Made by a program: the position numbers and the translations under genes. Shown one piece after another: positions 214 to 58,627 of a stretch of DNA of 64,000 bases; within the stretch, counting starts at the first letter, position 1, and each line of letters starts with the position of its first letter. The notes under the pieces were generated by a model. The model ran no database searches. It was given only the letters and a program-made list of their open reading frames with translations, and had not been told where the DNA came from. The stretch comes from Protoeuglena noctilucae (lineage: Eukaryota): the NCBI GenBank assembly GCA_958009085.1, contig OY253687.1, forward strand, positions 806,001 through 870,000, read 5' to 3'.

Positions 214-3200
214 ATGAGGTGGATCCCGTTCCTTCCGCACGAATGCTCGGGGACGCCCCCGGGACCCCGTAGCGGCCACACGGCTGCGGTTCTGACCCAG
301 GTGGGCCGGGGCCGATTCTCTGCGGGAAGTCCACTGCTGGCTCGCGCTCGCGTCTGTGGGCGCAACCTGGTCGTTTGCTCCTCCAATGATATCCATTCCG
401 CGCTCGCTGCTTGCGGCGCTTTCAGGCGTCTCGTTCCGCGACCCTGCGCGAGGCTCTCAACGCGCCCCTCGCTCGTCCGCGCAGTGCAAGCTCGGCAGGA
501 ACGCCGTCGTTGTCTTCGGTGGCGTCCGCGAGGGCCTCTTCCTTGGCGACCTGCACGTCTTTTTGCCGGAGAGCAACTCGTGGGTCGCGCCCGACGTGTT
601 TGCCGAGCGCCGGCCCCGCGCGCGGGCCTTCCACTGCTCCGCGGCAGGTAAGGATGACTTTGTGGACTCGACGCTATGCAAATCCTGGACTTTAAGACGC
701 ATCCCGGCTGCAGCGGGCTGCAGCGAGGCAACGCCGCACCGCTCTCCCCCTCTCTCCAGACGGCGCGCACGTGTACATCTGGGGCGGGCGCTGCGGAGAC
801 ATCACGTTCGAGGATTTCTGGCGATTCGACTTAGACGCGAACCACTGGTGACTTACAGCGCGTGGCGACCCCGACCGCCCCCGCAGCTCCCACACCCTGC
901 CTCGCTAACCTCCTCTACCCTTTCTCCGCGTATCTGTTCCTCAGGGAAGAACTGAGCTGCACCGGCACGGTCCCCCTCAGCCGCGACTTCGCGTCGCTGA
1001 CGTGCGTGTGCCCGGGCCGCCTGGTGTTGTTTGGCGGGTATGGCTCCGGTCAGTGGTTTGGCGACGCGTTGGCTTTCGATGTCGCCACGTGCGCCTGGCA
1101 CGGCCTGGAGCCGCCCGCGGGAGAGGGCTCGTCGCCGCCGCTCACGCCGCCGCCCCGCAGCACGCACGGCGCGCTGTGGGTGCAGCAGGGTGCCCCATCC
1201 ACCGGCCGGCTGCTGGTGTTTGGGGGCCAGGGCCACGGGGGAAGGCAGCTGGACGATCTGTGGGCGCTGAAGGGGGCGAACGAGGCTGACCTGGAGGGGG
1301 GGAGCCGAGAGGGCGTGGTGTGGGCCAAGATACCCCTGCCGGCCTCAGGTGTGACATGGCGCATGGGAGGTTTGGTGGGTGGGTCTGCTGGTGAATGTGG
1401 GCTTGTGAGAGAGTCTAAGGCGTCGGGTTGTTAGTTTGATTGTAGTTTTGTGTATCCTCTCTGACTCGACATGCAATGCTGTAGCTCGCTGTGGTTTGTG
1501 TTACGACTGATCGGCAGCAGTCGCTACTGCTGCCATCTCCCAGCAATGCCAACACCGTATAGTAATATATCTCTTTGTAAGAATTATCTCTTCGTGCCTG
1601 TTCGCGTCGCAGTGGGACCCGGCGCGCGGTCGGGGATGTGCGTGGCGGAGGAGAGCGGCGTGATTGTGGCCATGGGCGGGCACAGCAGCGGGCACCTGCT
1701 GAGAGGACTGGTGATGGGTGACAAGAGGGGCGTGTACCACAGGCGAGGGATGGTTGGGTGGGGTGGTCTAGTGGTGGGGTGAGAGTGGAGCGAGTGGACG
1801 GGCAATCTTTCCCCATTACTGCTCCTATGACTTTCATTCATGATTGCAGCACCGTCTTTGGCCGATGGTGTGCATTGATGAACCTGTGCTCTCTTCACTC
1901 ATCGCAGTTCCGTCGACGTCCTCAATCGCGTGCACTGATGTTACTGCATCATCTACCCCAATCGCAGTTCCGTCTATGTGCTAAATCGCGTGCATGAGGT
2001 CCACTGGCGCGTCCCCCTGGACCCCGGGGACGAGGCGGCCCGGCAGACGCGGCCACCCCCACGCGCCTACCACACGCTGGTGAGGGGGAGGGGGTAGCCA
2101 AGCCTCACTTCCAATATCCTTCCCTCGCCATCCATCTCACCCTCCCTCACACACTCACTCCCTCGCTCCCTCACTCTCTCCCTCCCTCTTTTACTCCCTC
2201 CCTCACTCCCTCACTCTACCACCACTCCCTCTCTCATCACCCCCAGTCCCCCCTGGGCACCGGCTCCCTCCTCCTCTTCTTCACCCACCCATTCACCATT
2301 CACTCACTACCCGCCTCTCTCCCCCACCCAGTCCCCCCTCGGCAACGGCTCCCTCCTCCTCCTGGGCGGCTACGACGGCGCCACGACCCTCGGCGACTGC
2401 TGGCTGCTGTCGGTGATGGACGAGGTGGACGCGCACCACTCGCTGACTGCGGCACATCGGCACAGGAGGAGCAAGGTGAGAGGGGATGAGTGGGTGTCGA
2501 GTGGTGTATATTGTCACTGCAATCACTCGCTCATGGCCGCGCACCAGCACCGGCGGAGCAAGGTGATGCATGAGTGGAGATGTGGGTTGATATGCTGTGG
2601 TATATGTCACTGCAATCACTCGCTGACGGCGCACCGGCACCGGCGGAGCAAGGTGAGGAGGCATGAGTGAATGGGGAGTATCATATGGCATAAGGGGTCA
2701 CTGCGCCAGTCACCACATGACACAGCTGCCATCTCACTAAGTCAGCTACGGCCACTCCTAGACTTACTAACACCCGTGGTTAACAACCACGGCTGCAGTG
2801 ATTACTCCGTGGTTGTCCCAGCCCACATGTGAGCAAGCGTGTCATCCTCCTGTAGATATAGTCCTTCAGAAGCTCACACATTCTGAAGTCCTTACAAAGT
2901 TCTTCAAACATGTGTGAGCTTCTGAAGGGCTATATCTTCAGAAGGATGACGCGCTCGCTCACGTATGGCTGGGACAACCACGGGGGGGGTGACCGTAGTT
3001 GATCCACTGAGACGGCAGCCATCACTGCACCACCCCCTGCCCATTGCAACTTTAAATTCAAACCTTATGTCCTTTAACCCCTATATCCCTGTTCCTCAAC
3101 CCCTGCAGGGTGGCACGGGGTCCGATGGCGCACTCTCCTCCATCACTCCCTCCCCCGACCCCACCACCCACGACACCCCACCACCCACGGCAATGCCCAC

Positions 3201-12500: not shown

Positions 12501-13431
12501 TGCGCACGCAACCCGCTCCCCTCCCACTCCCCCCAGCAAGCTCTCCCGCAAGGCCATGGCGAGCGTGCTGATCCTGACGCACGTGAAGGAGAAGCTGCAG
12601 TTCGTGGAGAAGGAGAATCTCCGATTGGTGGGCCGGTTGGAGGAATTGGAGGCCAGTTTGGCCGTCAAGAGGGATCGACTCCACGACCTCAAGGTGCACA
12701 GGGACGGGGCACGGAGGCGGCTGTCGAGGATGAAGGAGCAGAAGACCACGGGTGAGATATGGGGTGTAATTAGTGATAATAATCAATGTTTATGATTATT
12801 ATGATTGTATTGCTATCGTATATAGCTGTGGATGGCTGTGGATGGGTGTGCGCAGCCATGTGAGGCGGTGTGGCTGTTGGGGATCCGTACGCACGCTAAC
12901 ATCAAGTTATGCTGACATTAGCACTAATGCCCCACCCTCCCACCTCCCCCAGTGTCGTCTCCGATGCTGATTGAGGACATCCAGGGGCAGCGGATGAAGA
13001 GGAACGAGCTCAAGGCGCAGCTGATCAAGGTCAAGGTGAGACTGATTGATACAAGAGATAGGGTCAAACTGGTATTGACCATCACGATCCTGCCAATCCA
13101 AATACGTACATAGATACAATTGCACACCATAAATTTATTCGATAAGTGCCCTTATCGTTGCCTTGTCCCCAATCGCAGAACCAGTTCTCGGAGCTGACCA
13201 TTGTGCACTTGAATGCTATTTATAACAATACTTACACAGCAACACCCGTTATCATCGCAGGACCAGTTCTCGGAGCTGTCGAGCGAGGCCACGACGCTGC
13301 GAGGGCGGCTGACCACGGCGTCGGCTGCGGCGGGGGGTGGCGGCATGTGGGGGGGGTCGATGGCGATGAGTCAGGCCATGAGTCAGGGCAGGCCCAGCCG
13401 GCCATCCAGGGGGCCCATGGAGGGGGGGTGA
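9571..13431 (+). CDS. CCDC96: Cilia/flagella-associated coiled-coil protein CCDC96 (CFAP184, DUF4201)
   Basis: Signature KEQLAEGLHLIDFEQLKIENQSLNEEIEERNEEL and LTHVKEKLQFV; acidic Gly/Glu N-terminus; ATG at 9571 followed by a GTGAGT donor. Confidence 0.88.
11316..11662 (+). repeat. Tandem repeat of about 108 bp spanning an exon end and splice donor (two near-identical units plus a diverged one)
   Basis: GAGATCGCCAAGACGTTCCGGTGAG recurs at about 11322, 11430, 11538 and, diverged, 11640. Confidence 0.9.
12256..12421 (-). mobile_element. 5'-truncated non-LTR retroposon (SINE or LINE 3' end) with (CAT)n tail in a CCDC96 intron
   Basis: Reverse complement closely matches 59895-60060. Flanked by the direct repeat GTGGGGACTGA at 12245-12255 and 12422-12432 (11-bp target-site duplication). 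Ends in (CAT)n on the minus strand. Confidence 0.85.
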
Positions 13432-13738
13432 TGATCGGGGAGGGACGCGGCACGATATGTCTGGTCAGGGTACGATATGCGTGGCGAAGCACCATGTGCC
13501 TGGCAAGGCACGATATGCCTGGCAGGGCAGGGCGCAGGTTGTGAGGGCTCGAGTGTTTTTGCCGAAGCTGCCCTTTGAACGTCGCGATTCAAGCATCACT
13601 TTATGGCGTCAATTCATCCATCTACGGTCGCTGGGATAAGAGAACCAATGACAGCTCGCAGGCATCACAGACAAGACAAGCGGCGAGGGCGAGTTATTCG
13701 CACTGTGCATCCACCCCACCCCATCCCTCACAGCTCCT

Positions 13739-16700
13739 TTAAACCTCCCCCACACGCAACACCGCGTCCTCCCTGCACCACGACACGCGGCGTTGCACAC
13801 CAGACGCCAATCTACCCCCGCACCCCCCGCATCCGCTCGCCCGCTTGGCGCAGGCGGCGCGGGCGGGGCGCAGGATGCTGCGGTGGGGCCTGGCATGGCC
13901 CTTGCTGGGCGAGGGGGAGGTGGCGCCTCGTGGGTGGTGGGCGTGGGTGGAGTGGGTGGCATGCGTGGCGTGGGTGCGAGGGGGGCGGTGCGATCGGCGC
14001 AGGGATGCCTCCCGTATGGCGCGGAGGGCGGCCCACTCGCACTCGCTCGCTTCGATTAAAGCGGAGACGCGGGCGGGGGGGAGGGCCTGGGGGTAAGGGG
14101 CGGTGGGGGGAGTGGCGTGAAGGAAGGGTGGCAGATTGACGCATACATGGTCTGTGCTTCCCTCTTGCTCCACCCCGCGCCTCTCACAGCACGTCTGCCC
14201 CCCACAGCACGCTCCACCCCACCTGCTGCACCACCCCATCCCCCACCCACCCCAGCAATCGTGACTCTGTCCAGCCATAACACCTAGTCCAATCAACGCT
14301 TCTCCTTACCTGCTGCGCCGCCACCGCCGCCTCGGTCCACCTCTTGCGGATGTCGGCCGCCCTCGCGTCGTCCATGACCAGCCCACACCGGTCCGTGCTG
14401 GCCCACGCCTCCCCCGCGCGCCACTTCACCGCAAGCTTCTCGTTCACGTACCATTGCACGAAAGCGCCCGCCACCGCGTCCACGCCCACCGCATCCGCAC
14501 CCATCGCATCCCCCACCACTGCGCCACCGTCCGACTCCCCCACTGCATCCGCCCCCGCAGCACTAGCCCCAGATGCGCCCGCGACTGTCCCCCGCACAGT
14601 GACGTGCTCCCAGATCGACTGATCCCGCATGGATTGCTCCTTCATGATCTGACGGTGGTAGTGTAGCCGACCAGGTCCCCCGGGCACCACGTCCGCCCTC
14701 GCCCTCCGCACCACGTGGGCCCCCGCGGCCTCGTCGAACGCCACCCGGACGATCCCCGCGGCGCTCAGCGGCGACACGGGGCGGGGGACGCTGGGGGAAG
14801 GCGAGTGCGCGTGCGGGGTGGTGGCACTGGGGGTGCCGGTCTCGGCCATGCTCACGGCGACGTCTGCGGGCGACGGAGAGAGCAGGTGGTGCTATTAGCG
14901 ATGCTACTGTTGCCAGTCTGCATTAGATGTCAGCTTTGTTGAATGTGCAGCACCCCCTCATCTCCCAAAGTGCAACCCCATACAGGTGCGACCCGTACCA
15001 CGCTCTCTCATAACCTCTCACCTCCCTCGCCGCCTCCCCCCGGCAGCCGCAGTGGGGGCGACACCACGCTCCGCATCGCCAAGTCCTCGCACCCGTCGCC
15101 CCCGCTGGCCCCGCAGTCCCCCGCATCCCGGCCCAGCCGAGGCGCCACGGGCGTCGCCACCCCCCCTCCCTCCTCCGCCACCCCAGGAGCGCGCAGCAGC
15201 GCCGCTCGGTCCATCGGTGGCGTCCCCACCTCCGGGGACCCATCCCGGGCCTCCACGCTTTCCCCAACACCCCCCACGCGTGCGCCCCTGTTGTCACCCC
15301 CACAGCCCGCGCCAACCCCACCGCTCCCGACGCCCCCCGGGACCCCCGTCCCGCTTTCCACCCTCCCACTGTCCCACTCCGCACCCTGGCAGGCCCCCTC
15401 CGCCCCCTCCAATGCCCCGCTGGCATCGTGCAACGCGGCCCCGCACCCGGTGTCGTACCCAAGGATGTCGTCGATGGTCTCACGGGGCCCAGGCATGGTT
15501 AAAGCGAGCATCGCGGCCTCCAGGCGGGGGTTGGGGGGCGTGGCGACGCCCGGGGAGCCCCAGGGGAACGCCGGGTGGGGCGGGGCGAGCGATGGGCCCA
15601 TGCAGACATCGCTGTTGAGCACATGAGAGGGTGGCGAGGTGGCGGGCAGGGGGGTCGAGGGGGTAGAGGCTGACGCGACGGCGGCGGTGGGAGTCGGGGA
15701 CGCCACGCGAGGTGGCGAGCCGTGCTGCACAGCCGACGTATCGTGCAGTGCGAGCGGCGGCTGCTGCGGCGTGGGCGACGCCTCGTGCGCAGGGGACACA
15801 GGCGCAGCACCAGCCTCCGCCTCCGCATCGACTGCAACCCCCCCTGCTACTCCCTCCCCTCTCTTCCCCTGCCCCACCGCTGCGTCTGACGCCATCGTCG
15901 CTACCCGCGTCGCCGCCCGCGCACTCCGCCGCAGCGCCGGGCGACCCGGCCCGGCCGCAGACCCCGCCGCTGCCTTCGCCACCCCCGTTCGCGCCTTGCC
16001 ACCACCCCTCCGGCCCCTCCCCTTTCCACTCTTAGCAGCACTGCTGGGCCCGTCGCCCGCATCTGCCACGAACCCCTCCTCCCGACCCTCGCCACTCCCA
16101 CTCCCTGCCCCCTCTCCAGCCCCACCCACTCCCCTCTCCCCACCGCCCTCCCCACTCCCTCCCATCCCCTCCCCCTCGCTCCCTTCCCCCCTCCCCGCCA
16201 CCCCATCACCGCCACCCTCGCCCCTCCCCGCCCCGTCATCAAAGTCCAGCACCCGTACCACCGCCCCGCCCTCCTTCGCCGCACCCGCATCCCCCCGGCC
16301 CGCCCGGCCCCGCCCTGTCGCGGGGCTCTGGTCGGGGGTGGCGCCCTGCAATGCCAGCGAGAGGGCCCACACGACTGCCGGGCTGGGCGCGCCCACTGCC
16401 GGGCGCAGGGCGGTCGGCAGCGGGGGCGGGGAGGGTCCCGCGTGGGCGGAGGAGAGGCCGCGGAGGCGGCGGAGGGCGCTGGGGACGAGGGTGGTGGCCG
16501 AGGGTGGCCCGGCGGATGCGGGGGCGGAGGCCGGCGTCGCAGGGGAGAGGACGCGGGGGGTAGAATCGAGCAGAGGGCCGTCCGACACGGCGTTGCTGGT
16601 CGTGGGGACTGTAGGCGTGACGCCCGCAGCAGTGGTGGCGAGATCCGCAGCCGTGTCTGCACCGTCCCGCTCTGCGCCAACCGTGTCTGTGGCATTCGCA

Positions 16701-18641
16701 GCCACAACGACCCCCGCCATCGCTGCTCCCCCATCGCCCGCATCGCCCGCTGCCGCACCCTCCCCAGCGTCGCCGGCCGCAGCTGTGCCTGCCCCGCCCC
16801 CGTCGCTGCGTCTGCCCTTGCCACGACGCCCCGCCCGGACCCGCGGCGCCTCGTCCTCTCCAGCCGCGCTCCCCTCCCCACTCATCTGCATCTGCTTTCC
16901 CAGCCCCGCATCTCCGCCACCGCCACCCCCACCGCCCCCGCTCCTCCGTGCGCTCCGTCGCAGGCGCACCCCCTGCGACGACGGGGGGTGCGAGCGCTGC
17001 GGGGCTTCCCCAGACGGCCGCAGGGGTTCAGGGTCCTGCAAGGCCCCCTCCGCTGGCTGCGAGGGCGTCGGCAGTGGCTGGGACGGCTCCGGCACCGACA
17101 CCGGCTGCTGTGCCGGCCGTGTGGGCTGGTCGTCCTGCACTGTCTGGGGCATTGGCTGGGTTGCTGCCTGCACCAACTGCGTGTGCTGGGCGTGCTGGAG
17201 TGCCCCATCTGCGCCCTGGCGGGGCGAGAAGGCGTCCGTCGAGAGGCGCGGCCTCGGTCGCCTGGCACGGGCAGTGGCGCGCCTGGGGGGGAGGGGGAAA
17301 GGGATCCGATGCGTGGGAAGGGGGGGTGGCATCCACGGCGGCGAGCGGTGCAGTTGCAGGCGATGTGGGGAGCAGCACAGGCAATGGGTGAGCTTCTCAT
17401 GTTCTAAGTAACCGTTCCAGTCACATCATGGATCATATATATAACCACAACTCTTCGTGGGCGGCGTTACTTCAGAAACGATGACGATGCACACCCCATC
17501 ACCCCCGCAGCCTCACCTCCTCGCCAGCCGCACCGTCCGCACGTGCTCGGCAAAGTCGTACGCATCGCCATACGCGCCCTCGTCGTTCCCACTGCCGCCC
17601 ACGCCATCGCCAGCGCCGCCGCTCTCCGAGTCGCTGCCGGGGAACGCGAGGGGGTCACGCGGGGCCGCAGGGTCGCACGATGTGGCGAGGGGGTCAGTCG
17701 GGGCCGTGGCAGCGTCACGAGGCGTGTTGCCCTCCTCGCCATCCCCGCTCTCTCCCACCCCCCGCGGCCCCTCGACGGGGCCTCTTATCCCTTCCATATC
17801 AGCGTCGCCCTCATCGCCCTCTCCCCCCAGTCTCTCCCCATCCCCGCACTCCTCCTCCACCTCCTCTCGCTCCCCACCATCGCCATCGCCATCACCTCCC
17901 TCAGTCGCCTCGTCCGGGCTCCCCGTCGCATCATCGATACCCTCCGGCGATTTCTCACCGCCCAGCAACGACCCCTTTTCCTCCGCCAACCCTCCCGCCC
18001 CACCCACACGCACCCCCACCCCACGCGCGCTTGCCTCCCCACCCCTGACCCCCCGCTCCCCGCTCCCCTCGTCTCCCTCCACGTCCCGCTCCCTCCCTCG
18101 CCGTGCCAGTTGCCCCGCCTCCCCTCGCCCCGTCGCCTTGCTCTCAACTCCACCCACCCGCCGCTTGGCGCTGCCACGCCCGCCGTCCCCAGCACCCTCC
18201 CGCAATCGCTTCAGCCCCTTGCGGCGATCCGAGAGCGCCGGTGCCGCGCTGGGGCCCTGTCCCGACCCCCCCGCCACCACCCACCAGTCACTGGGACGTC
18301 GCGATGCCCGGCCGGACACCAGCACCGTGGCCCACGCGTCCTCCCCGGGTGCATTTGGCTCGCCCGCAGCGCCCGCCGGCGGAGTCTGCGGCGTCGCATC
18401 CCTGCGCGCGGCGCAGCTTGCGATGTATGAGGCACGGGCAGCGTGCGGCGAGCAGTGCGGCAGCAGGGGCAGCGCAAGGGTGCTGGAGAGACCTGCCGGC
18501 GCACGGCCCTCGCCTGGGTTTGGATGAGAAACGCCAGCGGGGCTTGGAGGGTGCCGGGGGCGTGGCGTGGGACCCGGCTCGCAGCTCCTTGCTTGGAGCC
18601 TGGGGCTGGGATGCGAGGTGCGGGCCGGCGGGAGCGGCCAT
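13739..18641 (-). CDS. Large, mostly low-complexity multi-exon protein with a CENP-C-like RxxxxPxxWW motif and a small globular C-terminal segment
   Basis: Long minus-strand frames 17513-18325, 15008-17332, about 14310-14870 and 13739-14086, linked by plausible introns (GTAAG donor at 14309). Motif SGRASRRPSDWWVV at 18275-18316. Start codon uncertain. Confidence 0.55.
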
Positions 18642-19316
18642 CCACCACTCCCGGGGCGCCAGGCGCGTCCGTCCGGTCATAACTACGAGATATTCTGAAA
18701 CAGAACGCCCTATTTGGACCTGCGCGCGGGAAGAGCGTGTTAGCTGTTTGCAAATGAGCGTGGGCGCTCACCCTCGCCGCAACGGTGAGCCGGGAAGGGT
18801 GTCTTCATGGCGAGACGATAGTACGACGCGGTGACATTCAAAAGCCCTGCGAGGCGGGGACCGGGGGGCTAGAGGAGTTGTCCCCACTCACCCGCAGCGA
18901 TGTCTCGCGTCCTGGGAAGAGCTGGGCTACTCCTCAGCGCCGCTGATCCTTCCCCCGGATTGTCTTTGTGGAGACAATCTCCCGAAGCCTAATCAGCCTT
19001 GACGGGGCGCCCCTCCACGCGAGAAAAGTCCTTGCCGCCCTCGGTTTTCAAATTGCCTCGCGCGGCGCGAGAGCGAATTCAGGCAACGGGTCTCCCGTTC
19101 ATCCTTGTTCTTGTTAATTGCGTTGGCGGCGAAGAGAATAGGCGGCAGGGGTGCCCGAGGCACTTGGATGCAAAGCCTCTCGTGTCGGAAACGGACGGAA
19201 ACCGACTCACGCCCGCAAGAGATCACGTACATTCAACGCGGACGCATATTTGTTCCGAACCAAGCCAGCATGCGCCTCAGGTGGCCTGCTGGTTCTGGCG
19301 TGCCTGCACCCACGCG

Positions 19317-21043
19317 TCATCCCGCACCCACGCGCTGCGCCCCGAACGGCCTCTCCTTCCCTACGATGACAGGCGCGTGGAACGCCTTCTCCCGCGTATT
19401 GAGCTCGTCCGCGAACTCCGCGAACTTGCGCGCCTTCTCCTCCCGGATGGCCCGACGCTGCTCCTCGATGTCCCTCCGCTGGCGATCGCGCTCTTCCTGC
19501 CGGGCCCGCCGCTTCTCCTCCTTCATGCGCGCCAAGTCCGCGTCGATGCGCGCCCCGAGCTCCGCCGCCTCCCTGCGCCGCGCCTCCTCCTCGAGTCGCC
19601 TCTGCTCCATCTGCCGCTGCAGCGTCGCCTGCGTCTCCCGCTCCCGCGCCGCCCGCGCCTCCCGCCGCGCCGCCGCGTCCTCGTCCGCGCGCCGGTTGTA
19701 CGCGGCCAGCTCCCGCGCGGCCCTCTCCGCGTCCTCGCGCGCCCGCTCCTCCAGCCCCCGCGACGGCGCTTCGGCGCCCCCGCGCGCCAGCAGAGCCTCG
19801 AGCCGCCGCTGCCGCTCCTCCGTCGCCCTCTCCCGCGCCTCCTCCCGCTCCTGCAGCGTCCGCTGGTACGCCTCCAGCTGCACCCTCTCCCGCAACGCGT
19901 CTTCCTCACGCTGCCGCGCCCGCTCCGCCCGCCGCGCCTCCTGCTCCGCCATCGCGCGCCGCATCTCCCCCTGCCGAGCCGCGCGCGCCCGCTCCTTGCG
20001 TTCCGACGCCTCCCGGAGCTCCCTGCGAGATCGCGAGTCCCCGATTACTGCTCGTGTCTCTGCACGTCCCCCGCTGCCACGCCGTGCCCCTCGCCACATC
20101 AATAACATGGCTCCCCGCACGCTCACCGCTTCGCCTCTTCCTCCTCCAGCCAATCCTCGAACCGCTGCCGCTCCCGCGCGTCCCTCGCCGCCGCCTCCCG
20201 CTCGGCCCTCAGGCGGTCGTGCTCGGCCGCAAGCGCCTCCTGCCGACGTCTCCTCTCAACACCCTCGTTCGCCTCGTCGCCGCGCACCCTCTCCAGCGTC
20301 GCGTCCATCTCCCGCTGCTCCCGCGCCCGCTCCTCCCGCTCCGCGCGCTCCGCCGCTGCCAGCTCGGCCAGCTGCCCGTCCAGCAGCGCCCGCTGCCGTG
20401 CCGCCGCCGCCGCCCGCGCCTGCCGCCGCCTCTCCGCGTCCTCCCGCGCCGCCCGGTCGTCGTCCGCGGCGATGCGACTGAAGTCCGTCACCGCCAGCCG
20501 CGCGAACGCCTCCAATTGGTGACCCGGCAGGTCCGCCGGGTGCCGCCCCGCCAGCCCCGTCCGCGCCACCCGCGCCCGGTGCTCCTCAAGCAGGTGCGCG
20601 GGCGGGCGGTACTCCCGACGCTCGCGCGCCAGCCGCTCCGCCTCCCTCGCCGCCTCCCGAGCACGGTCTGCGGCCTCACGCTCCGCCCGCCGCTTGTCCC
20701 ACCCCGCCCGACGCCGCGCCTCGCGCGCCGCGGCACTCCCCAGCGTGTCCGTCTTGTCCGCCGGGGCGATGCGCCGGGCGCTCGACATGAACGCGCCGGA
20801 GCCGGACGCCACGCCGCTCCACGCCCGCACCACGGGCAGCATGGCTTTGGCCGGGCGGGCCGCGCGGGGCTCCGAGATGGGCCGCGAGAGGATCCTGGCC
20901 ACGTCCGCTTTAAGCGCCGCGAGCGACGCCTCGGTGAAGTCTCCGTCGGCGAGGTGGCGCTCGCACCGGCGGAGGGCGCGCAGGAGCTTGTCTCGCTGCG
21001 CCTGCTCCGACATGTGGGTCGTGGCCAGCCGGGCTTGCAGCAT
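19317..21043 (-). CDS. R/E/A-rich long coiled-coil protein (trichoplein/TPH-like; possibly a ciliary microtubule inner protein)
   Basis: ORFs 20123-21127 and 19317-20153 join through an intron at 20023-20126 (GTGAGC...CAG). Charged helical sequence with strong GC3 bias. The 3' end may include one more small exon. Confidence 0.6.
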
Positions 21044-21707
21044 GCCCTGCGAGGAGTCGCGATAAAGATAACTTGAGTAAAACAGCGAAGAGAGGCAGTG
21101 CGAGGGCCGAAGCGGGCGCGATTCCACCGCCGCGCGGGCGGAAGGTGTGTTGAGCGCAAAGCTGAGGCTTGGTGGGGCGACGCGGGCGCCCCATCGCTTG
21201 CGACCAGGTCAGCGGAACACGACTTAGTAGATGTCTACAGCGGCAGCACCATGGTCCCACAAGATGGCGTCGGGGGGCGACATAGCTTGGCGCATGTCGC
21301 ACCTTCAGGACCTGGGCCCCGTTGCGGCTGGAGGCCGCCTCCTTCACCCTGTCCTCAGCCATCCCTCATGAAATACGTATCTAAGGCCTTTCGGCAAAGC
21401 GCGGACGCCTGTCCCGCGAGCTGGGCCAAACACACTGTTTCACACTGCCAAGACGCCTCAGAGCTAGTTTCCCTCCCTGGCCAGCCACCTCTGAAAGTTG
21501 TGCAGGAAGTGCGAGCCCGCTGGCCCCTCAGGCTTCAGGCTGTTCCGTCCCTCTTGCGCTCCGCTGACGCCGTGCAGCATGAGGCGCAGGTTTGTCGGTC
21601 TGGACGCCGATGCGGTGGCTCCACACGATCAGCATGCGCACCTCCAGTCGTCGGGTAGGTTTCGTGCCGATCTCCCGCCGCGTGGGCGCGGGCATAGCTC
21701 TGCGATA

Positions 21708-22395
21708 ATGGCCGTGTCCTGCGTGTGCATCGTCGGCCCGGAGAACGACCCGCTGTACCTAGAGGTTTTCAAGAAGGGTGCACAGGTGAGGGCTCCGCGG
21801 CAGCGGCGTTCGGGCGTCCCCCGCAGCACCCCTGTTCGACCCAACGCTCGTTGCGGCCGTGTGAGCGCAGGACGAGGGCAGCTTTCACTGGCTTTGCCAC
21901 GGAGCGCTGGACTACATCGAGACCAAGGTGAGGGTCCGATCACATGGCCCGTTCGCAAAGCCCGGGGCGCCCAAGGGGACAGAGACCCGCACGTCGACTC
22001 TGGGAGCCACGGCTGCAGGTCGAGCTGACTTCCAAAGCCCGCGGGGACCCCTCAGCCACCGACGAGTTCCTCGGTCTGCTGTACGTGACGGAGGACTATC
22101 AGATTTTCGGGTATCTCACCTGCACCAGGTGCGGCGCTCTGGGGAGGAACAGGCCGCAGCCCCCGCAGCTCCGCGCCCGGCCATTTGACGGCAATATGGA
22201 ATGGCAATTCGCAGGGCCAAGATCATCCTGGTCGTGGAGTCTGACGAGGACCTGGGAGACGCGCTGCGGGGCACGTTCGTGCAGCTGCACGAGCTCTACA
22301 CCCGAGCCCTCTGCTCGCCGTTCCACGATCCGGGCAGCCGCATCACCAGCTCCGACTTTGCAGCAGCCGTGGCGGCGGCGCTGAGCGTCCGCTAA
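21708..22395 (+). CDS. TRAPPC2L: TRAPP complex subunit 2-like (sedlin family, Tca17)
   Basis: Exons 21708-21785, 21871-21927, 22019-22128 and 22215-22395 give MAVSCVCIVGPENDPLYL...HGALDYIETK...FLGLLYVTEDYQIFGYLTCTRAKIILVV...LHELYTRALCSPFHDPGSRITSSDF. Confidence 0.88.
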
Positions 22396-22403
22396 CGGCC
22401 AAG

Positions 22404-23153
22404 ATGGCGGCGGCGGAGGGCAGGCCGATGCGAGAGGCGGGGGAGGGGGCGGTCGAGGCACCGGGAGCGTCGGCACGCGATGGGGTCCTGGCGATGTCGG
22501 ACCGAGTGCTGTCGCGGGTGTGCGACGATCTCAGGGCCAGGCGAGGTGGCAGGCAGACGTGGCATGGCGGATGGGGCAGCGCAGCGTGCGCAAGCGTGTG
22601 AGGCAGACTGTGACCTGCTCTTGACACTGTGCAGGGCCCGCGACCGGCTACCCTGCCCTCTGAACCGGCATTTGGTGGCCCTGGCGGTGCTGTTTGGTCG
22701 CCAGGCGGAGATGGCTCTGCAGATTGTCGACAAGGGGCAGGTGTCGAAGGCCGTGGGCCGCGAGTCGCGGCGGGAGGTCTTTCACGTGCGTGCGGGAGGG
22801 AGCAGGCGCAGGGCTTACAGGGATGCCGTGTGCACGCATGGCTAGCGTGCGCGTCTGGTCGTGGGTCGTGGCGCATGACGCGTGGCGAGCGAAGTTGAAA
22901 CACTGCCATGTCGCCGCGTTGCCACAACCTCGCCCGCGTTCTCTAATTGCAGGTGCAAGGTCGCGAGGAGCGCTACTTGGTCTTCCCGCCGCACTACTGC
23001 AGCTGCATGGCGTTCCACTTTGACGCGGTGACCAAGAGGGAGCACCTGACCTGCAAGCACGTCTTGGCGGCGAGGCTGGCCGACGCCCTCGGGCGCTGCG
23101 TCCTCGATACGGTCGACGACGCGCAGCTGGCGGCTCTGATTCTAGGGCGCTGA
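22404..23153 (+). CDS. ZSWIM7: Zinc-finger SWIM domain protein 7 (SWS1, Shu complex, homologous recombination)
   Basis: Three exons; ALAVLFG...ALQIVDKGQV...VFH|VQG...YCSCMAF...TCKHVLAARLADALG, matching the SWIM CxC...CxH pattern. Confidence 0.85.
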
Positions 23154-23871
23154 GTCTGATGGTGCTGCATCTGCCGCGCCGCTCCTGCCCAGCCCGGCCG
23201 CTGTAGGATCACTTGTACGTATACTAGCTGTCCGTCCATATTCATCGCTTGAGAGTTTTGCGAGCAGTTGTTCCATGCACTGAGTGCCGGTCTCTGGCAG
23301 CACCTTGCCGCCGCTGATGCGTGGCGGTCGGCACCAGAGGCATTCAAGAAAAGCACATCGATTCCCAGACATCGTTGCACCGGCAGGTCGACCGCTGCGG
23401 GTGACCGGGAGCCTCTCCCGGCTCGCCGAATCCGCGAGTGCCCGTCTTTAGACCCTCACAACGCATATATATCGCGTAGTTGGCTGAGCAGCACCGAGCA
23501 ACCTCCTCCTTTGCGCAGACAGGTGCCAGGGCCCCACGCATGCCCCCTGCACTTGCATTGGCCCACAAGCTCTCCTGGTCCTCGTTTGGACCGTGTACTA
23601 GCCCCGGCCTGTTCTTTCTGACATTGGCTACGTGTCTGTCTGCATCGAAAAGCCCGCAATGCTCTCTGCTCGCCGAGCCGATGCAAACGCCCCGCGCACC
23701 TTTTGGCCCGTGCGGCGTTCCGCCAATCGCATGGAATCCCGCCTGTCGATTGTCGCCGTGAACTGGGGTCGACATCGTTTCATCGCGTCACCAGCCGGAC
23801 CCTCGCCGCCCCCGCAGAAGGCAAGCCGATCCCGCGCGAGCCTCGCGCCACCCGCGCTACCTCGCGCCGCG

Positions 23872-26257
23872 ATGGGCTTCGGTAACCCGTCCTCCTTCCA
23901 CCTCCCAAAACCCCGGAGGCTGCAATGGTACCGCGCGGAGGACCACATGGAGTGGCCCGACGGGCCTTTGGACACGACCACGTTCCACGCGCAGCAGTAC
24001 CGCAGTTATGAGGTCCCCGTCCCCAAAATCATCCGGTGAGGGCGGCGAGGCAGTCTGCGCGATGCCGCTAAGTAACTGCACGACGTGGCGGAGGAGCCCC
24101 GCGCTATGGCCCGCTAAGCCCAGACCGTCGCGCACCCCATCGCCGGTCATCGCGACTCGCCCATGCATACCAGCACCGTCCCCGCCCGCAGCCGCGGCGA
24201 GACCAACCGCTGCGCGAGCACCGTACCCTCAGACGCGGGCCATGCCACGGATTACGCGCCCTCGTCGCAATTGCCGGACCTGCAAGTCGCGTACCCCGCG
24301 CACCGCGTCTCGCTCCCCACCCGCACGGCCTCCCGCGTCGAGATCGGCAAGGGCGAGTGGGACGCCCAGACGCGACGGGCCATCAAGGACGCGATCCACA
24401 ACACCCGCGCGTGGCAGGCGTACCAGTCACAGCGCGTCGACACGCGGGGGCTGAGGTGGGTGGGAATGTGGCTGGGGGTTTGGCGGTGGGGGACTTTCCC
24501 TGTGCCACGAGCACTCTGTCTGAGCCACGTGGCCTTTGCCTGGCATCAGAAACATGAACAGCCGGGGCGCATGCGAGCGCAGCGACTGCCGCAGCGCAGT
24601 CGTTGCCGCTGCCACCTAGCGTCGCCCCCCTTTCCCAAACGCTTCCCCTCGGCGCCTCTCATACCCTGCATGTTTCTCGCTCTCTCAGGCAACAGCACTC
24701 GGTGCAGCTGGCGTTCGCGGCCCCCGCACCGACGGCCAAGGAGGTGGCAGCGCTGTCGGGCAAACTGCGCGCCGCCGCAGCTCTGTGCGCGGAGGGCAGG
24801 GCGCCCCAAAGCAGGTGCGGTCTTGGGGGGGGGGGGGGGGGGGGATAATGTATGCGGAGTGGCTCGCTTCGGCTTTGCACGGGGGGTGGCACTGTCAGGA
24901 ACCCTATCCATAACGAGAGCGCTTTACAACGGTGCCGCCGTGTTCGTGCCTCTGCACAAATTCAAATCGTCTTGCCACGCCCTGGCACGTATCAAACACG
25001 CAACATTTATCTCCCAATTCCTCTCCGCAGTGACGAGGCCCGGCCGGCGCCCGCCTCGCGCCCCGCCAGCCGCGCTGGTAACCAAGCGCCCGACACATCG
25101 GCCCCAGCTCCCGAGGCAGCAGCGCCTGAGGTTGAAGGGCAGGGCGGGGAGGGTGAGGGGCGGGAGAGGGACGACGGATTCGAGGACGCGGCTGCGGTGC
25201 TGGAGCACTGGACGAGGAGGGGCGGGGAGGCGTGGGAGGGGGATGCGGCGGGGGACGAGCGGTGGCGGCTGAAGCTGGGGGAGGCCGGGATGGTCGGGAG
25301 AGGTGAGGGGGTTGGTGGATGCAAGAGAAATTGTCGGTAACGCATGCTTTGGGATGGCGTCAGTGACGCTAAGGGTGGTACGGATGTTAAATGACGTCGC
25401 TGATATCGGTGCTTGCTGCGCCTGCTGTGCGGCCGTCTATGCATACGCATGCCACGCGTATGTGCAGCATCCACCATGACCATGTGGTGCCACTCACACC
25501 GTCGTGCGTGCACAATATACACATGCTCTCTCTGTGCCCTCCCCAGGCACCGCTCGCTCCTTCGTCCCCTTCCGTTTCCCGGATGCGGGCACGGGCGGCA
25601 AGTCGACTGTCGCGCTGGGGCAGGGCGCAGAGCCGGACATGTACCTGACGACCAACGGGACGACGTACCTCAGCAAGCGGAGGGACGGGGTGCCAGGCAA
25701 GCGCAACGACCGGCAGCTGCCACAGGTGAGCGGGGTGCCAATCTTAGTATTAAAGTGTTGCTTTGTCACGCGGCCGCTTTGTTAAGGGCAGGGCAGGTGC
25801 ATGCACAGGCGGGCGATCGCGGTGGCCTCCCCCGCGATCGCCAAGAGCGATTCGCTCAACCCCGCTCTTACCCTCTTATCTCATTTGATCTCATCACCCC
25901 CTGCCTCTCTCCCCGCAGCACTCGGACCATTTGTGGGAGGTGCAGCGGGAGCTGGGCCCCAACGGCGCTCACTCGTTCGATACCGTGGCCGCTCTCACCT
26001 TCCGCCCGCACAGCCGGTCCGCCAGCCCGCGCCGCGTGGCGTTGGGCACGTTTAACAAGACGGCGAGTCACCTGGACGTGCCGCCTGGGGAGGGGGCGCC
26101 CTTAGATGGCACCACCACCTACCGAACGTGCTTCACCGACGAAGCACGAAAGGTCCCGCCCCACGTGACCCTGCCGCACCCCAGCGACGCGACGGTGGAT
26201 CTGCGGCGGGGGAGGGACCCGTGCGCGCGGCGGCGGTGCGGAGGGCGCGGGAGATGA
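23872..26257 (+). CDS. Hypothetical multi-exon protein with short T-T-x-aromatic motifs (possible SAXO/Mn-motif ciliary protein)
   Basis: GC3-rich exons MGFGNPSSFHLPKPRRLQWYRAEDHMEWPDGPLDTTTFH..., YLTTNGTTY, DGTTTYRTCF with canonical donors (24036 GTGAGG, 25726 GTGAGC). The exon chain is not fully resolved. Confidence 0.5.
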
Positions 26258-26667
26258 TGAAGGCGCAGGTGCGGGGGGGGACGGTGGCGGCGGCCACGTG
26301 ACGGGGTATGGGAGAGGGCATGGGAGGAGTACAAGTGACAGGGACACTTCTTTAGACACACACGCGATAGGGCGGCATGCGTCGATGAGTCTAGGGGACA
26401 TGGGCGAGGAGGGTTTCTTGGTAATGGGGCTGCTGCTGGGCACGCTGGGTTACGGTTGGCATGCACCGCCGCGCTCTCCGTTCAACTAGAGCTAGCAGCT
26501 AGGAACATGAACTATAACATGAGCAAAATACATGAACTGTGGACAGCATGCGCTAACAGGGTCAATGCACTCTGGCAGGCTGCGGCTGGGACGATGCCAG
26601 GGGTCGGCAACGTTGCTCCCAAATGCGGGCCTCCTAACGTGGCCCCCGCTGCACTTGTGGGCCGCCC

Positions 26668-28116
26668 CTACCCCTTCACTTGCCAAGCACGGAATGGCTG
26701 CACGTGAATCCACTTGGTCGCCGACCACTTCTCGCCTTTGATGACCGGGCACCCCGCATGCATGGCACTGGGGTCCTCGTGACCGTCTGTTGGCAGGGGA
26801 GGAGGGTCGAGAGTGGCATTTGCGATAAGCCAGCGCTCTGCACACTGCTTACAAACACTGGGCAGCGCCGCCACCCTCCGTTGCGCCTGGCCCCGCCCCT
26901 GCCCTCGCCCCTACCGCCGCCCCTGCCCCCACTCCCACCCTAGCTTCCCAAACCCGCTCCCCACCTGGCGTCAGTGACCAGAACAGCAGCGCGTCCCCCT
27001 TGCGCGGCTTCACCGCCACGCCCTGCCTCGCGCACTCCGACATGCCCTGCGCCTTGTACGCACTCTCCACCTCGTCATCCAACCACTTTCCATTCGGGAA
27101 CACCGTCTCGCCACCCTCCTCCACATCTGCAATGCAAGTCACAGTGGGAACTCTATGCATGCACCACGCACGTATAGTATACTATGGATAACAATCCATG
27201 AGCCGCAGCCATCCTCATCATTAACAATCCGTGCTCATCATTACCAATCATCAGCTGTGTCCTGTCGCTTGCCTGTCAGGTACATGAGCACGGTCGCACA
27301 CCGCGACTGCCCGTCCTCTGGCGTCGGATACAGCAGCACGTCCATGTGGGCGCGGTACTGCTGGCTCGGCTGGTACTTGAGCACCTGTGGAATGGTTGAA
27401 TGCAGACAGGGTGGATGTTTGACAATCATCCCCAGTGTAACTGTACCCCTGGGGCGCGTGCACACAGCACGTGCATGCGCAGCACGTCACCTGCAGGTCT
27501 TCCTGGTGCGGCATCGGCAGCATCGTCCACGCGGCGATGCGGTTCTCGACAGTCCGGATGACCTCGTCCGACTGGCGCGCCAGGAACGTGCCAGAAGAGG
27601 TGCGGATATCGTTCACCTCGCCGTGGCCCCCGTGGCCCTCCACGAGGCTCCGCTGCATCGAGGGGTCCGCGAGAGACCGGATGTGGTCGGCCTCGGCCGC
27701 GGACATGAAGTTGTGATACACCACGGCCCTGCGGAGATGCATGCAAGGGGGCCTGTCATAAACGCCCAGCGCTAAAACGCATGCGTAAGCAGCAGCACCC
27801 ATCAGTCGCCCCTTACGCACCTGGGGGACCACGAGATGATCTCAATCCATGGCTCGGAGTCGTCGTGAGTCGTTCCGACCAGTCCCCCCGCGTGCCGGAT
27901 GCGAGAAGTGGGGCCTGACGTGTAGCTCGAGCCGCTACCGTGGCGCTTCTTGTCCGGGAACGAGCGCGCGGCTTCGGGCGTCACGACGAGGAGGCATATG
28001 AGGATGATGCCGAGGATGAGCGCCCCTGTGGCCCGCACGGCCGGGGCCCTCCATGCCCTCCATGCCCTCCCGAGTGCTGGAGCCTCCGTCTGCGCGCGCG
28101 AGGGCCGGCAGCACAT
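26668..28116 (-). CDS. P4H: Prolyl 4-hydroxylase (2OG-Fe(II) oxygenase), tandem copy A, no evident ShKT domain
   Basis: N-terminal hydrophobic anchor, [59 protein letters not shown]. Start codon uncertain. Confidence 0.9.
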
Positions 28117-29009: not shown

Positions 29010-30555
29010 TCACGCCTCGCACACCCCGCATGCCTTGCGGCACGCCCCCGGGAAGCCGTTCGCCCCCACCATGTACTGCGGGTTCTTCTCGCACTCACCC
29101 CCCTGCAATCAGATCAACACAGCAGAGATCAAGAAAGTGATCAAGACACACGCTGTCCCTTCCCATTCGGCACAATGCCGCGGTATCGCTCCTTCCTGCC
29201 ACGACAAACGCCAGTCGCAACCCTTCGACGCGCCTTGACCATGCACGGTCCATCGCGCATGCCCCACTGCAATCGCTGACCACATCATTGGCTGTCTCAC
29301 CTTTGCCCACATGTCGCAATTCTCGTGGTGATCCGCGCACGTCGTCATGTCCTCCAGCTGTCGGGCCCGGAATGGCTGCACGTGGATCCACTTGGTCGCC
29401 GACCACTTCTCGCCCTTGATGACCGGGCACCCCGCGTGCATGGCACTCCCGTCCTCGTGACCATCTGTTGGCAAGGGAAGGGAAAGAGTGGCGAGAATGG
29501 CATTTGCAGCAAGCATGCACGCTGCTTACACACACCACACTGGGGCAGACAAACACTGAGCAGCATTGCCACCCTCGCATGTGCCTCCTCCTGCCCCTAC
29601 CCTTGCCCCTACCCTCGCTGCTGCCTCCCACCTGGTGTCAGCGACCAGAACAGCAGCGCGTCCCCCTTCCTCGGCTTCACCGCCACGCCCCGCCTCGCGC
29701 ACTCGGACATGCCCTGCGCCTTGTATGCCCTCTCCACCTCGTCATCCAACCACTTCCCATTCGGGAACACTGTCTCGCCGCCCTCCTCCACATCTGCGAT
29801 GCAGGTCACAGTGGCAACTGTCTGCAATCACCAACGCGCCACAGCACACCACGCCGAGTACCAAGCAGCCTCGCCCTCGCCGCCCAGGCTCGCCTGTCAG
29901 GTACATCAGCACGGTGGCGCACCGCGACTGCCCGTCCTCCTCCGCCGTCGGGTTGTTGACGACCACGTCCATGTGGGCCCGGTACTGCTGGCTCGGCTGG
30001 TACTTCAGCACCTGCAGGTCTTCCTGGTGCGGCATGGGGAGCATCGTCCACGCAGCGATGCGGTTCTCGACAATCTTTATGACCTCGTCCGACTGGCGCG
30101 CTAAGAAGGTCCCCGAGGACGTGCGGATTTCGTTGACGGTCGGGGACCCGTCAGCCCCGAAGACAGTGCTCCGCTGCATCGAGGGGTCCGCGATCGAGCG
30201 GATATGGTCGGCCTCGGACGCCGACAGGAAGTTGTGATACACCACGGCCCTGCGGGAGGGAGCTGGGGCGCACTGGTCGCACACTGTTGGCGCATGCAGC
30301 GAGACAGAGACGATTCCTGACCGCTCTGGGGCATGGGAGTCACCTCGGAGACCACGAGATGACCTCTAGCCAAGGCTCAGAGGTGTCGGTCGTCCCCGCG
30401 GTCGCAGAGCCTCGGCTCTCGGCTCGTTCTGCTCCGCCACCCCCGTCATTGCGCCCCTTCTCGGGGAACGAACGCGCCGCTTCGGGAGTGACTACCAGTA
30501 GGAGAGACAGCAATGCTGCTGCGGTCAGCGCCCTCAGCGACCCCAGCGCCCGCAT
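29010..30555 (-). CDS. P4H: Prolyl 4-hydroxylase with C-terminal ShKT domain, tandem copy B
   Basis: Same catalytic motifs (HMD...H...K) followed by CADHHENCDMWAK|GGECEKNPQYMVG...CRKACGVC; signal/anchor from ATG 30555; TGA at 29010-29012. Confidence 0.92.
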
Positions 30556-32132: not shown

Positions 32133-32332
32133 NNNNNNNNNNNNNNNNNNNNNNNNNNNNNNNNNNNNNNNNNNNNNNNNNNNNNNNNNNNNNNNNNNNN
32201 NNNNNNNNNNNNNNNNNNNNNNNNNNNNNNNNNNNNNNNNNNNNNNNNNNNNNNNNNNNNNNNNNNNNNNNNNNNNNNNNNNNNNNNNNNNNNNNNNNNN
32301 NNNNNNNNNNNNNNNNNNNNNNNNNNNNNNNN
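32133..32332. other. Assembly gap (200 N)
   Basis: Run of N characters. Confidence 1.
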
Positions 32333-32907: not shown

Positions 32908-54885
<21,978 letters not shown>

Positions 54886-58553: not shown

Positions 58554-58627
58554 GCCGTCGTGGCCAAGCTGGTTAAGGCGCCTCCTTAGTAAGGAGGAGA
58601 TCGTGAGTTCGAGTCTTACCGATGGCA
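58554..58627 (+). tRNA. trnT-AGU: tRNA-Thr(AGT)
   Basis: Acceptor GCCGTCG/CGATGGC, D region TGGCCAAGCTGGTTAAGGC, anticodon arm CCTCC-TTAGTAA-GGAGG, T-arm GTGAG-TTCGAGT-CTTAC, TTTT terminator just downstream. Confidence 0.96.

Follow-up and report, generated by a model that had tools for sequence, protein, structure and literature searches.

A probable bicistronic nuclear locus of Protoeuglena noctilucae encoding TRAPPC2L and a ZSWIM7-like protein, with features of leaky-scanning translation

Background

When two open reading frames (ORFs) of a nuclear genome lie on the same strand with only a few nucleotides (nt) between them, are both expressed from one messenger RNA (mRNA), and by what route would ribosomes reach the second? 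The question is raised by positions 21708-23153 of a 64,000-nt stretch of Protoeuglena noctilucae DNA (assembly GCA_958009085.1, contig OY253687.1, positions 806,001 to 870,000 of the forward strand; hereafter the window, numbered from its first letter), in which a gene for TRAPPC2L, a subunit of the vesicle-tethering TRAPP complex (ORF1), is followed by a gene for a SWIM-finger protein that is probably SWS1/ZSWIM7 (ORF2). We put at roughly 65% the probability that one mRNA is made from this locus, that some ribosomes pass the TRAPPC2L AUG by leaky scanning, and that ORF2 is begun at the first AUG downstream. The locus is probably one more member of a class of bicistrons already known from algae.

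Two complete genes on one strand

ORF1 begins at ATG 21708 and ends at TAA 22393-22395, and ORF2 begins at ATG 22404 and ends at TGA 23151-23153, both on the + strand, with the reading frame of ORF2 at +2 relative to that of ORF1. The spacer between them, CGGCCAAG, occupies 22396-22403 (+). An earlier, sequence-only reading of this DNA had reported a gap of 8 nt between the TRAPPC2L stop codon and an ATG on the same strand, and the coordinates match it exactly. This is the layout of a bicistron: a pair of complete ORFs that share one strand, with separate start and stop codons and a short spacer between them. The 8-nt gap is exceptional locally, because the next coding-like segment of the + strand follows ~720 nt past the ORF2 stop, from ~23872 (its first ATG). 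An internal ribosome entry site in the spacer was rejected, as 8 nt gives no room for one. Read-through of the ORF1 stop codon was rejected also: it would give no in-frame fusion because ORF2 is offset by +2, and in the spliced models such translation would stop after 50-63 codons.

ORF1 has four exons. Exon 1 (21708-21785) opens in the start context GCGATAATGG and closes at the donor CAG/GTGAGG; exon 2 (21871-21927) lies between the acceptor GCGCAG/G and the donor AAG/GTGAGG; exon 3 (22019-22128) is bounded by GT..AG splice sites; and exon 4 (22215-22395) runs to the stop codon. Removal of three GT..AG introns (262 nt in total) leaves 426 nt, comprising 141 codons and the stop. Exon 4 matches the Pfam family Sedlin_N with E = 5.5e-9 (profile positions 73-125 of 129) and, among Protein Data Bank (PDB) chains, the fly TRAPPC2L chain 7b6d_H with E = 9.6e-7 (residues 79-133 of 138); its match to sedlin/TRAPPC2 is poorer (E = 0.016). 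The same chain is the best match for exon 1, of which residues 4-19 align with residues 3-18 of 7b6d_H (E = 0.19), and for exon 3, of which residues 7-36 align with residues 46-75 (E = 0.0014), so that exons 1, 3 and 4 are colinear with it over residues 3-133. Because these exons match 7b6d_H in order, ORF1 has the natural ends of the family, and on these alignments it is a complete TRAPPC2L with both its own N-terminus and its own C-terminus. The name given to the upstream gene by the sequence-only reading is borne out by the Sedlin_N score, the preference for TRAPPC2L over sedlin and the full-length colinearity.

An in-frame ATG lies upstream at 21579, with no stop codon between it and ORF1. 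An N-terminally extended ORF1 starting there was considered and rejected, the region not being coding-like and the match to fly TRAPPC2L beginning at residue 4.

The downstream SWIM-finger gene

Exon 1 of ORF2 (22404-22558, the 3' end being uncertain) opens in the start context GCCAAGATGG and offers four in-frame GT donors, at 22520, 22546, 22559 and 22586. For exon 2 (22635-22785) the acceptor TGTGCAG/G at 22633-22634 is favoured over an alternative at 22605-22606, because GCAG/G is the pattern common to the other four acceptors of the locus. Exon 3 (22953-23153) encodes the SWIM zinc finger and ends in the stop codon. Stop-free splice combinations number 232, but only four, one for each of the donors listed, are plausible; these predict proteins of 155-177 aa from an ORF of ~470-530 nt.

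The coding nature of both genes was assessed from GC content by codon position. In all exons of ORF1 and in exons 2 and 3 of ORF2, GC at third positions (GC3) is ~0.81-0.88 and at second positions (GC2) ~0.35-0.47, with GC3 and GC2 of 0.85 and 0.35 in ORF1 exon 1, 0.84 and 0.37 in ORF1 exon 2, and 0.84 and 0.42 in ORF2 exon 2; introns and flanks lack this pattern. Exon 1 of ORF2 is coding-like solely in the frame of ATG 22404, and 22546-22634 looks intronic. By this measure the two ORFs are both coding sequence, and so is the first exon of ORF2 when read in the frame of ATG 22404.

These profiles bear on whether ORF2 has been mis-modelled, with its true start at ATG 22428, 22494 or, if the first intron is not one, 22564, or is a gene in decay, in which cases the 8-nt spacing would be meaningless. 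Four donors remain available for the first intron, no homologue covers the N-terminus of ORF2, and the ORF1 frame stays open past its TAA for 149 codons of unspliced DNA (22396-22845, +) and coincides with the frame of ORF2 exon 2; this open frame is probably a coincidence of GC-rich sequence, for which a rough estimate is about 5%. Against such an error stand the coding-like GC that sets in at 22404 in the ATG frame, the intron-like composition of 22546-22634, an intact SWIM motif, and the finding that among ATGs 22404, 22428 and 22494 only the first has A at -3 and G at +4. Even a start at 22494 would leave a gap of only 98 nt. We consider a mis-modelled or decaying ORF2 highly improbable.

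The identity of ORF2 comes from exon 3, in the translation of which the motif C-S-C, X15, C-K-H-V-L-A is read (22998-23069, +). This agrees with the motif of the Shu2/SWS1 family, CXC..Xn..CXHXXA (PMC6316741), with n = 15, within the n = 6-16 usual in a typical SWIM domain (PMC5727457). The match to the Pfam SWIM family is a narrow pass, at 20.6 bits where the cut-off is 19.6 (E = 3.2e-4). In a feature search of the ESM Atlas, exon 3 finds SWIM-type clusters at 0.90-0.91, scores that shuffled proteins reach in 4-10 of 100 cases, and exon 2 finds nothing above 0.77. A PDB search with exon 3 returned 0 matches at E up to 10, and searches of the protein collections gave no alignment to a named SWS1/ZSWIM7, returning solely a fragment that is the window's own ORF. 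On the motif and a marginal Pfam score, ORF2 is only probably SWS1/ZSWIM7. The earlier naming of the downstream gene as ZSWIM7 thus stands as regards the SWIM finger and is weakened to a probability as regards the family.

Relatives in protein collections

In the protein collections this locus is represented exon by exon, through ORFs called in the bacterial manner. When TRAPPC2L exon 4 and ORF2 exon 3 were used as queries for longer homologous proteins, no matches were found. The close-relative search with ORF2 exon 3 gave one match, P0007, which is the window's own ORF called with a TTG start at 22947; it belongs to a cluster of 3 sequences observed on 9 contigs. The ESM Atlas contains the 66-aa translation of this exon letter for letter, without the TTG start codon. 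An exhaustive search of representatives with TRAPPC2L exon 4 gave six matches: P0001 is the window's own 64-aa ORF, starting at the intronic ATG 22201; P0005 is a weak match, a 66-aa TRAPPC2L-like fragment with 42% identity; P0004, also weak, is a 116-aa fragment that we take to be sedlin-like; and the other three are repetitive, multi-stretch matches set aside by judgement as of low complexity. Among the protein-collection matches there is neither a fusion of Sedlin and SWIM domains nor a full-length spliced protein, and these sets, nearly devoid of relatives, are uninformative either way.

The lack of a fusion among so few matches counts, to that extent, against RNA processing at the AG of 22402-22403, directly before ATG 22404. 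Such processing might take the form of an in-frame cis-spliced fusion from a phase-0 donor (21786 or 21928), given that exon 1 and exons 1 + 2 measure 78 and 135 nt, both end in phase 0 and would join ORF2 in frame, or that of spliced-leader trans-splicing, which is not known in green algae. The would-be acceptor CCAAG/A is unlike the five GCAG/G acceptors of the locus, and ORF1 is already a complete TRAPPC2L with its natural end. The likelihood of either form is very slim.

An ATG-free path between the two start codons

In the spliced RNA, ATG 22404 is the first ATG following the ORF1 start. No ATG occurs in any frame across the 431 spliced nt between the two starts, exon junctions included, and the only ATG of spliced ORF1 in any frame is its start codon; a recount thus agrees with the earlier statement that the spliced 426-nt TRAPPC2L coding sequence has none past the start. 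The introns of ORF1 hold three ATGs (21944, 22196 and 22201), and ORF2, in three of its four splice models, holds six, five of them in frame.

The absence of ATG was compared with several null models. A mononucleotide Poisson model expects 4.55 ATGs and gives a probability of zero, P(0), of 0.011, and 5000 dinucleotide-preserving shuffles expect 2.8, with P(0) = 0.027. Sampling the 64 kb on its two strands in 12714 windows of 431 nt gives an expectation of 6.5 and a P(0) of 0.0186. When the null is drawn from the window's 72 coding-like segments (15738 nt in all, with 200 ATGs), the expectation is 5.5 and P(0) 0.004 by Poisson, and 5.1 and 0.014 by block resampling (20000 draws). Over all nulls, the probability of the absence by chance is 0.004-0.027. 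ATG depletion in ORF1, a feature of bicistrons, is real, but it is moderate evidence.

Upstream of ORF1, ATGs of the + strand occur at 21579, 21610 and 21634. With the nearest at 21634, a leader without AUG could measure at most 71 nt, and the longest ATG-free stretch before the ORF1 start, 21637-21707 (+), whose GC by codon position is not coding-like, is the predicted 5' untranslated region (UTR); transcription is predicted to start inside it. A short ORF1 of 426 nt combined with a possible AUG-free leader of at most 71 nt would be as expected of a bicistron. The ATGs at 21610 and 21634 share one frame and belong to a 32-codon upstream ORF (+), the TAA of which (21706-21708) overlaps the TRAPPC2L start as TAATG; it would be relevant only if transcription started upstream of 21634.

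The ATG-free stretch and the spacer together are where two overlapping monocistronic transcripts have to be weighed, the start site for ORF2 lying within the body or last intron of TRAPPC2L and the TRAPPC2L mRNA ending inside or beyond ORF2. Nothing in the sequence argues against an internal start site, the ORF1 start has the good context (A at -3, G at +4) of an ordinary monocistronic gene, and a methionine-free protein of 141 aa could arise by chance at a rate of a few percent. Two such transcripts would have to do without room for a 3' UTR and a promoter, for which 8 nt is too small; they leave the ATG-free ORF1 unexplained beside introns and an ORF2 that do contain ATGs; and no TGTAA is present from the ORF1 stop to the ORF2 stop. 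We regard overlapping transcripts as the main alternative, possible though unlikely.

Start-codon contexts and a model of expression

The start contexts of ORF1 and ORF2 share A at -3 and G at +4 and differ at -1, -2 and -4 only; positions -2 and -1 are T and A before the ORF1 start and A and G before that of ORF2. The sequence-only reading had held the ORF2 context to be the stronger. It does differ at the three positions named, but because A at -3 and G at +4 are common to both starts, a contrast of weak and strong Kozak contexts is not demonstrable. That reading's proposal as a whole, a bicistronic TRAPPC2L-ZSWIM7 locus translated by leaky scanning, is supported in part: it retains the hallmarks that can be checked in the sequence, and a weaker Kozak context of ORF1 is not evident.

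From these features we infer a single transcript, leaky scanning and a relation of dose between the two products, as follows. One promoter in the divergent region of 350-670 bp upstream of 21708 would give a single pre-mRNA with five introns, and the mature mRNA would consist of the TRAPPC2L ORF (426 nt), the 8-nt spacer and the SWS1/ZSWIM7-like ORF (~470-530 nt). Part of the scanning 43S complexes would initiate at the TRAPPC2L AUG; the remainder would pass it, find no AUG for 431 nt, and initiate at AUG 22404, with its A at -3 and G at +4. In this way ORF1 would be at once a protein gene and a large upstream ORF that keeps the dose of the recombination factor low.

On the same bicistronic mRNA, ORF2 might instead be reached by reinitiation after termination on ORF1. 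Stop and start are only 8 nt apart, and reinitiation could also select for scarcity of AUGs near the ORF1 stop; the two mechanisms are not exclusive (PMC11892635). On the other side, ORF1 has 141 codons, whereas the best efficiencies cited are for upstream ORFs of few codons, and experiments made in vivo in A. protothecoides pointed to leaky scanning rather than to reinitiation (PMC11892635). The AUG depletion at this locus reaches more than 400 nt upstream of the ORF1 stop, and depletion over a whole ORF has been argued to fit leaky scanning better than reinitiation (PMC11892635). Reinitiation as the main route to ORF2 appears very unlikely here.

Several findings weigh against leaky scanning on a single mRNA. 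The first concerns the ATG-free stretch: when the protein is held fixed, zero out-of-frame ATGs are obtained in 19-33% of trials by synonymous resampling or permutation, which is not significant. Since avoidance out of frame is not significant alone, the ATG signal is mostly that of missing internal methionine codons (0 of 140 codons in ORF1, against 3.7 expected from the coding-like segments of the window), that is, mainly of one 141-aa protein without internal methionine, which has a chance of ~2% at the methionine rate of the window. Second, with A at -3 and G at +4, the ORF1 start is not evidently weak. Third, a canonical TGTAA was looked for after ORF2 and none was found: the 3' flank (23154-23871, +) has TGTAG at 23202 and TGTAC at 23214, and the + strand is free of TGTAA throughout 12765-27436, a region of 14.7 kb around the locus. 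Finally, neither the 36 + 43 curated algal loci of PMC11892635 nor the lists of 2021 (PMC7896298) include the gene pair, an absence that would count against the reading if the host were among the species covered. A TGTAA of the minus strand (TTACA at 22815) lies inside intron 2 of ORF2.

Surroundings of the locus

A divergent gene of the minus strand, coiled-coil-like in character, lies upstream of TRAPPC2L, with coding-like signal at 19320-21079 and a possible start at ~21362 or ~21040; it is the distance from these starts to ORF1 that leaves the 350-670 bp of shared promoter room. The window has ~65% GC overall (~54-72% in 2-kb steps) and contains spliced genes with short GT..AG introns, and TGTAA occurs in it 27 times on the + strand and 25 times on the minus strand, against an estimated ~19 by chance. 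These properties are no more than consistent with a chlorophyte host. At 14000-21000, where GC is 70-72%, both strands have open frames of up to 805 codons in several frames, rich in Ala, Pro and Arg; none of these long frames has a Pfam match.

Two coding-like genes of the minus strand, at 26948-28062 and 29271-30287, are arranged in tandem and are nearly identical, with long peptide stretches in common. Among 64 long ORFs at 15-32.5 kb, the sole Pfam match is to a 2OG-Fe(II) oxygenase domain in one of this pair, below threshold (23.4 bits, cut-off 27), and the two look like duplicates of the prolyl-4-hydroxylase type. In the rest of the window, Pfam searches of the first 150 of 175 long ORFs (25 at 58.5-64 kb being left out) found Kelch and midasin domains. 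Kelch-repeat exons lie at the left end of the window (296-1431, +). A very large multi-exon gene at ~33200-44200 (+), possibly extending further, has repeated AAA_5 and midasin AAA-lid domains, with Pfam matches at 33212-44176, by which it is a midasin/MDN1 homologue. An assembly gap of 200 N is located at 32133-32332, and Rfam and ARAGORN identified one tRNA only, tRNA-Thr (AGT) at 58554-58627 (+). Neither this tRNA nor the Kelch, midasin and 2OG-oxygenase-like genes serve as markers of a particular taxon.

Significance and comparison with known bicistrons

A search of the main text and supplements of PMC11892635 and PMC7896298, covering table cells up to 400 characters in length, did not find the pairing of TRAPPC2L with ZSWIM7, which the sequence-only reading did not know as reported; supplementary file 5 of the latter paper gives functional descriptions. 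Full-text literature searches for ZSWIM7 with TRAPPC2L, for either with polycistronic, and for ZSWIM7 with bicistronic found no paper, and a looser full-text search had no TRAPPC2L paper among the best 10 of 1,695. Within these sources the pairing is unreported.

If confirmed, the locus would be a clean and compact example for the catalogue, with an 8-nt spacer, an AUG-free ORF1 of 141 codons and two partners of recognisable function, and it would indicate that the downstream cistron of such an mRNA can encode a homologous-recombination mediator of the Shu2/SWS1 type. It would leave the known mechanism unchanged. It would be relevant to the annotation of algal genomes, since gene-calling programs are apt to omit pairs of this kind or to merge them, and its arrangement could serve as a natural model in designing cassettes that express two genes. 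A larger possibility, quite unlikely in our estimation, is that TRAPPC2L-SWS1 is an old and conserved chlorophyte bicistron overlooked by the curated sets, in which TRAPPC2L, as a methionine-free 'coding leader', would hold a RAD51-regulating factor at a low and proportional dose and retention of any of the three ORF1 introns, with their ATGs, would act as an off-switch for that factor. A recombination mediator would then join the DNA-repair genes of algal bicistrons, which include REX1S-REX1B and an RMI2-like ORF1 (PMC11892635).

Compared with TRAPPC2L/Tca17 of the sedlin family, ORF1 shares the Sedlin_N domain, the colinearity and the length (141 against 138 aa), and differs in having no internal methionine and in its probable role as the upstream cistron of another gene. 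ORF2 shares with Shu2/SWS1 (human ZSWIM7, the SWIM partner of RAD51 paralogues) a small size and a C-terminal SWIM finger with the family motif, and differs in an Ala/Gly-rich N-terminal stretch of ~30 residues that has no known counterpart. Protein-coding upstream ORFs and leaky-scanning bicistrons of land plants and animals, such as CDC26-TTM3, likewise involve an upstream coding ORF that limits translation of the downstream ORF on one capped mRNA, and many of them produce monocistronic forms as well (PMC11892635).

The closest comparison is with the bicistrons of green algae, of which 36 are listed for C. reinhardtii and 43 for A. protothecoides (PMC11892635), and in which exclusively bicistronic nuclear loci include TOM22-SDHAF3, OST4, REX1S-REX1B and CDC26-TTM3 (Gallaher et al. 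2021, PMC7896298; Duenas et al. 2025, PMC11892635). The present locus, known from its sequence alone, differs from these in its gene pair, which is not among the listed loci, and in its ORF1 start, which is not evidently weak, whereas the published bicistrons have weak Kozak-like contexts at ORF1 together with AUG depletion ahead of ORF2 (PMC11892635). The other hallmarks of the published green-algal class, namely a short ORF1, a tiny spacer and an ORF1 free of AUG, are all present. The two complete same-strand ORFs begin with an ORF1 of 426 nt, beside medians of 357 nt in C. reinhardtii and 291 nt in A. protothecoides, and sizes of 399-480 nt occur in the A. protothecoides table (PMC11892635). 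The 8-nt spacer falls below the medians of 183 and 40 nt in the same two species, and many A. protothecoides spacers measure 0-14 nt (PMC11892635). By our own count of that table, 16 of the 43 spacers are of 14 nt or less, and 20 of the 43 ORF1s have no internal ATG. Median 5' UTRs are 83 nt in C. reinhardtii and 54 nt in A. protothecoides (PMC11892635). Thus, in its short and AUG-free ORF1, its possible leader of no more than 71 nt without AUG, its very short spacer and the good context of its ORF2 AUG, the locus resembles the bicistrons already described from green algae.

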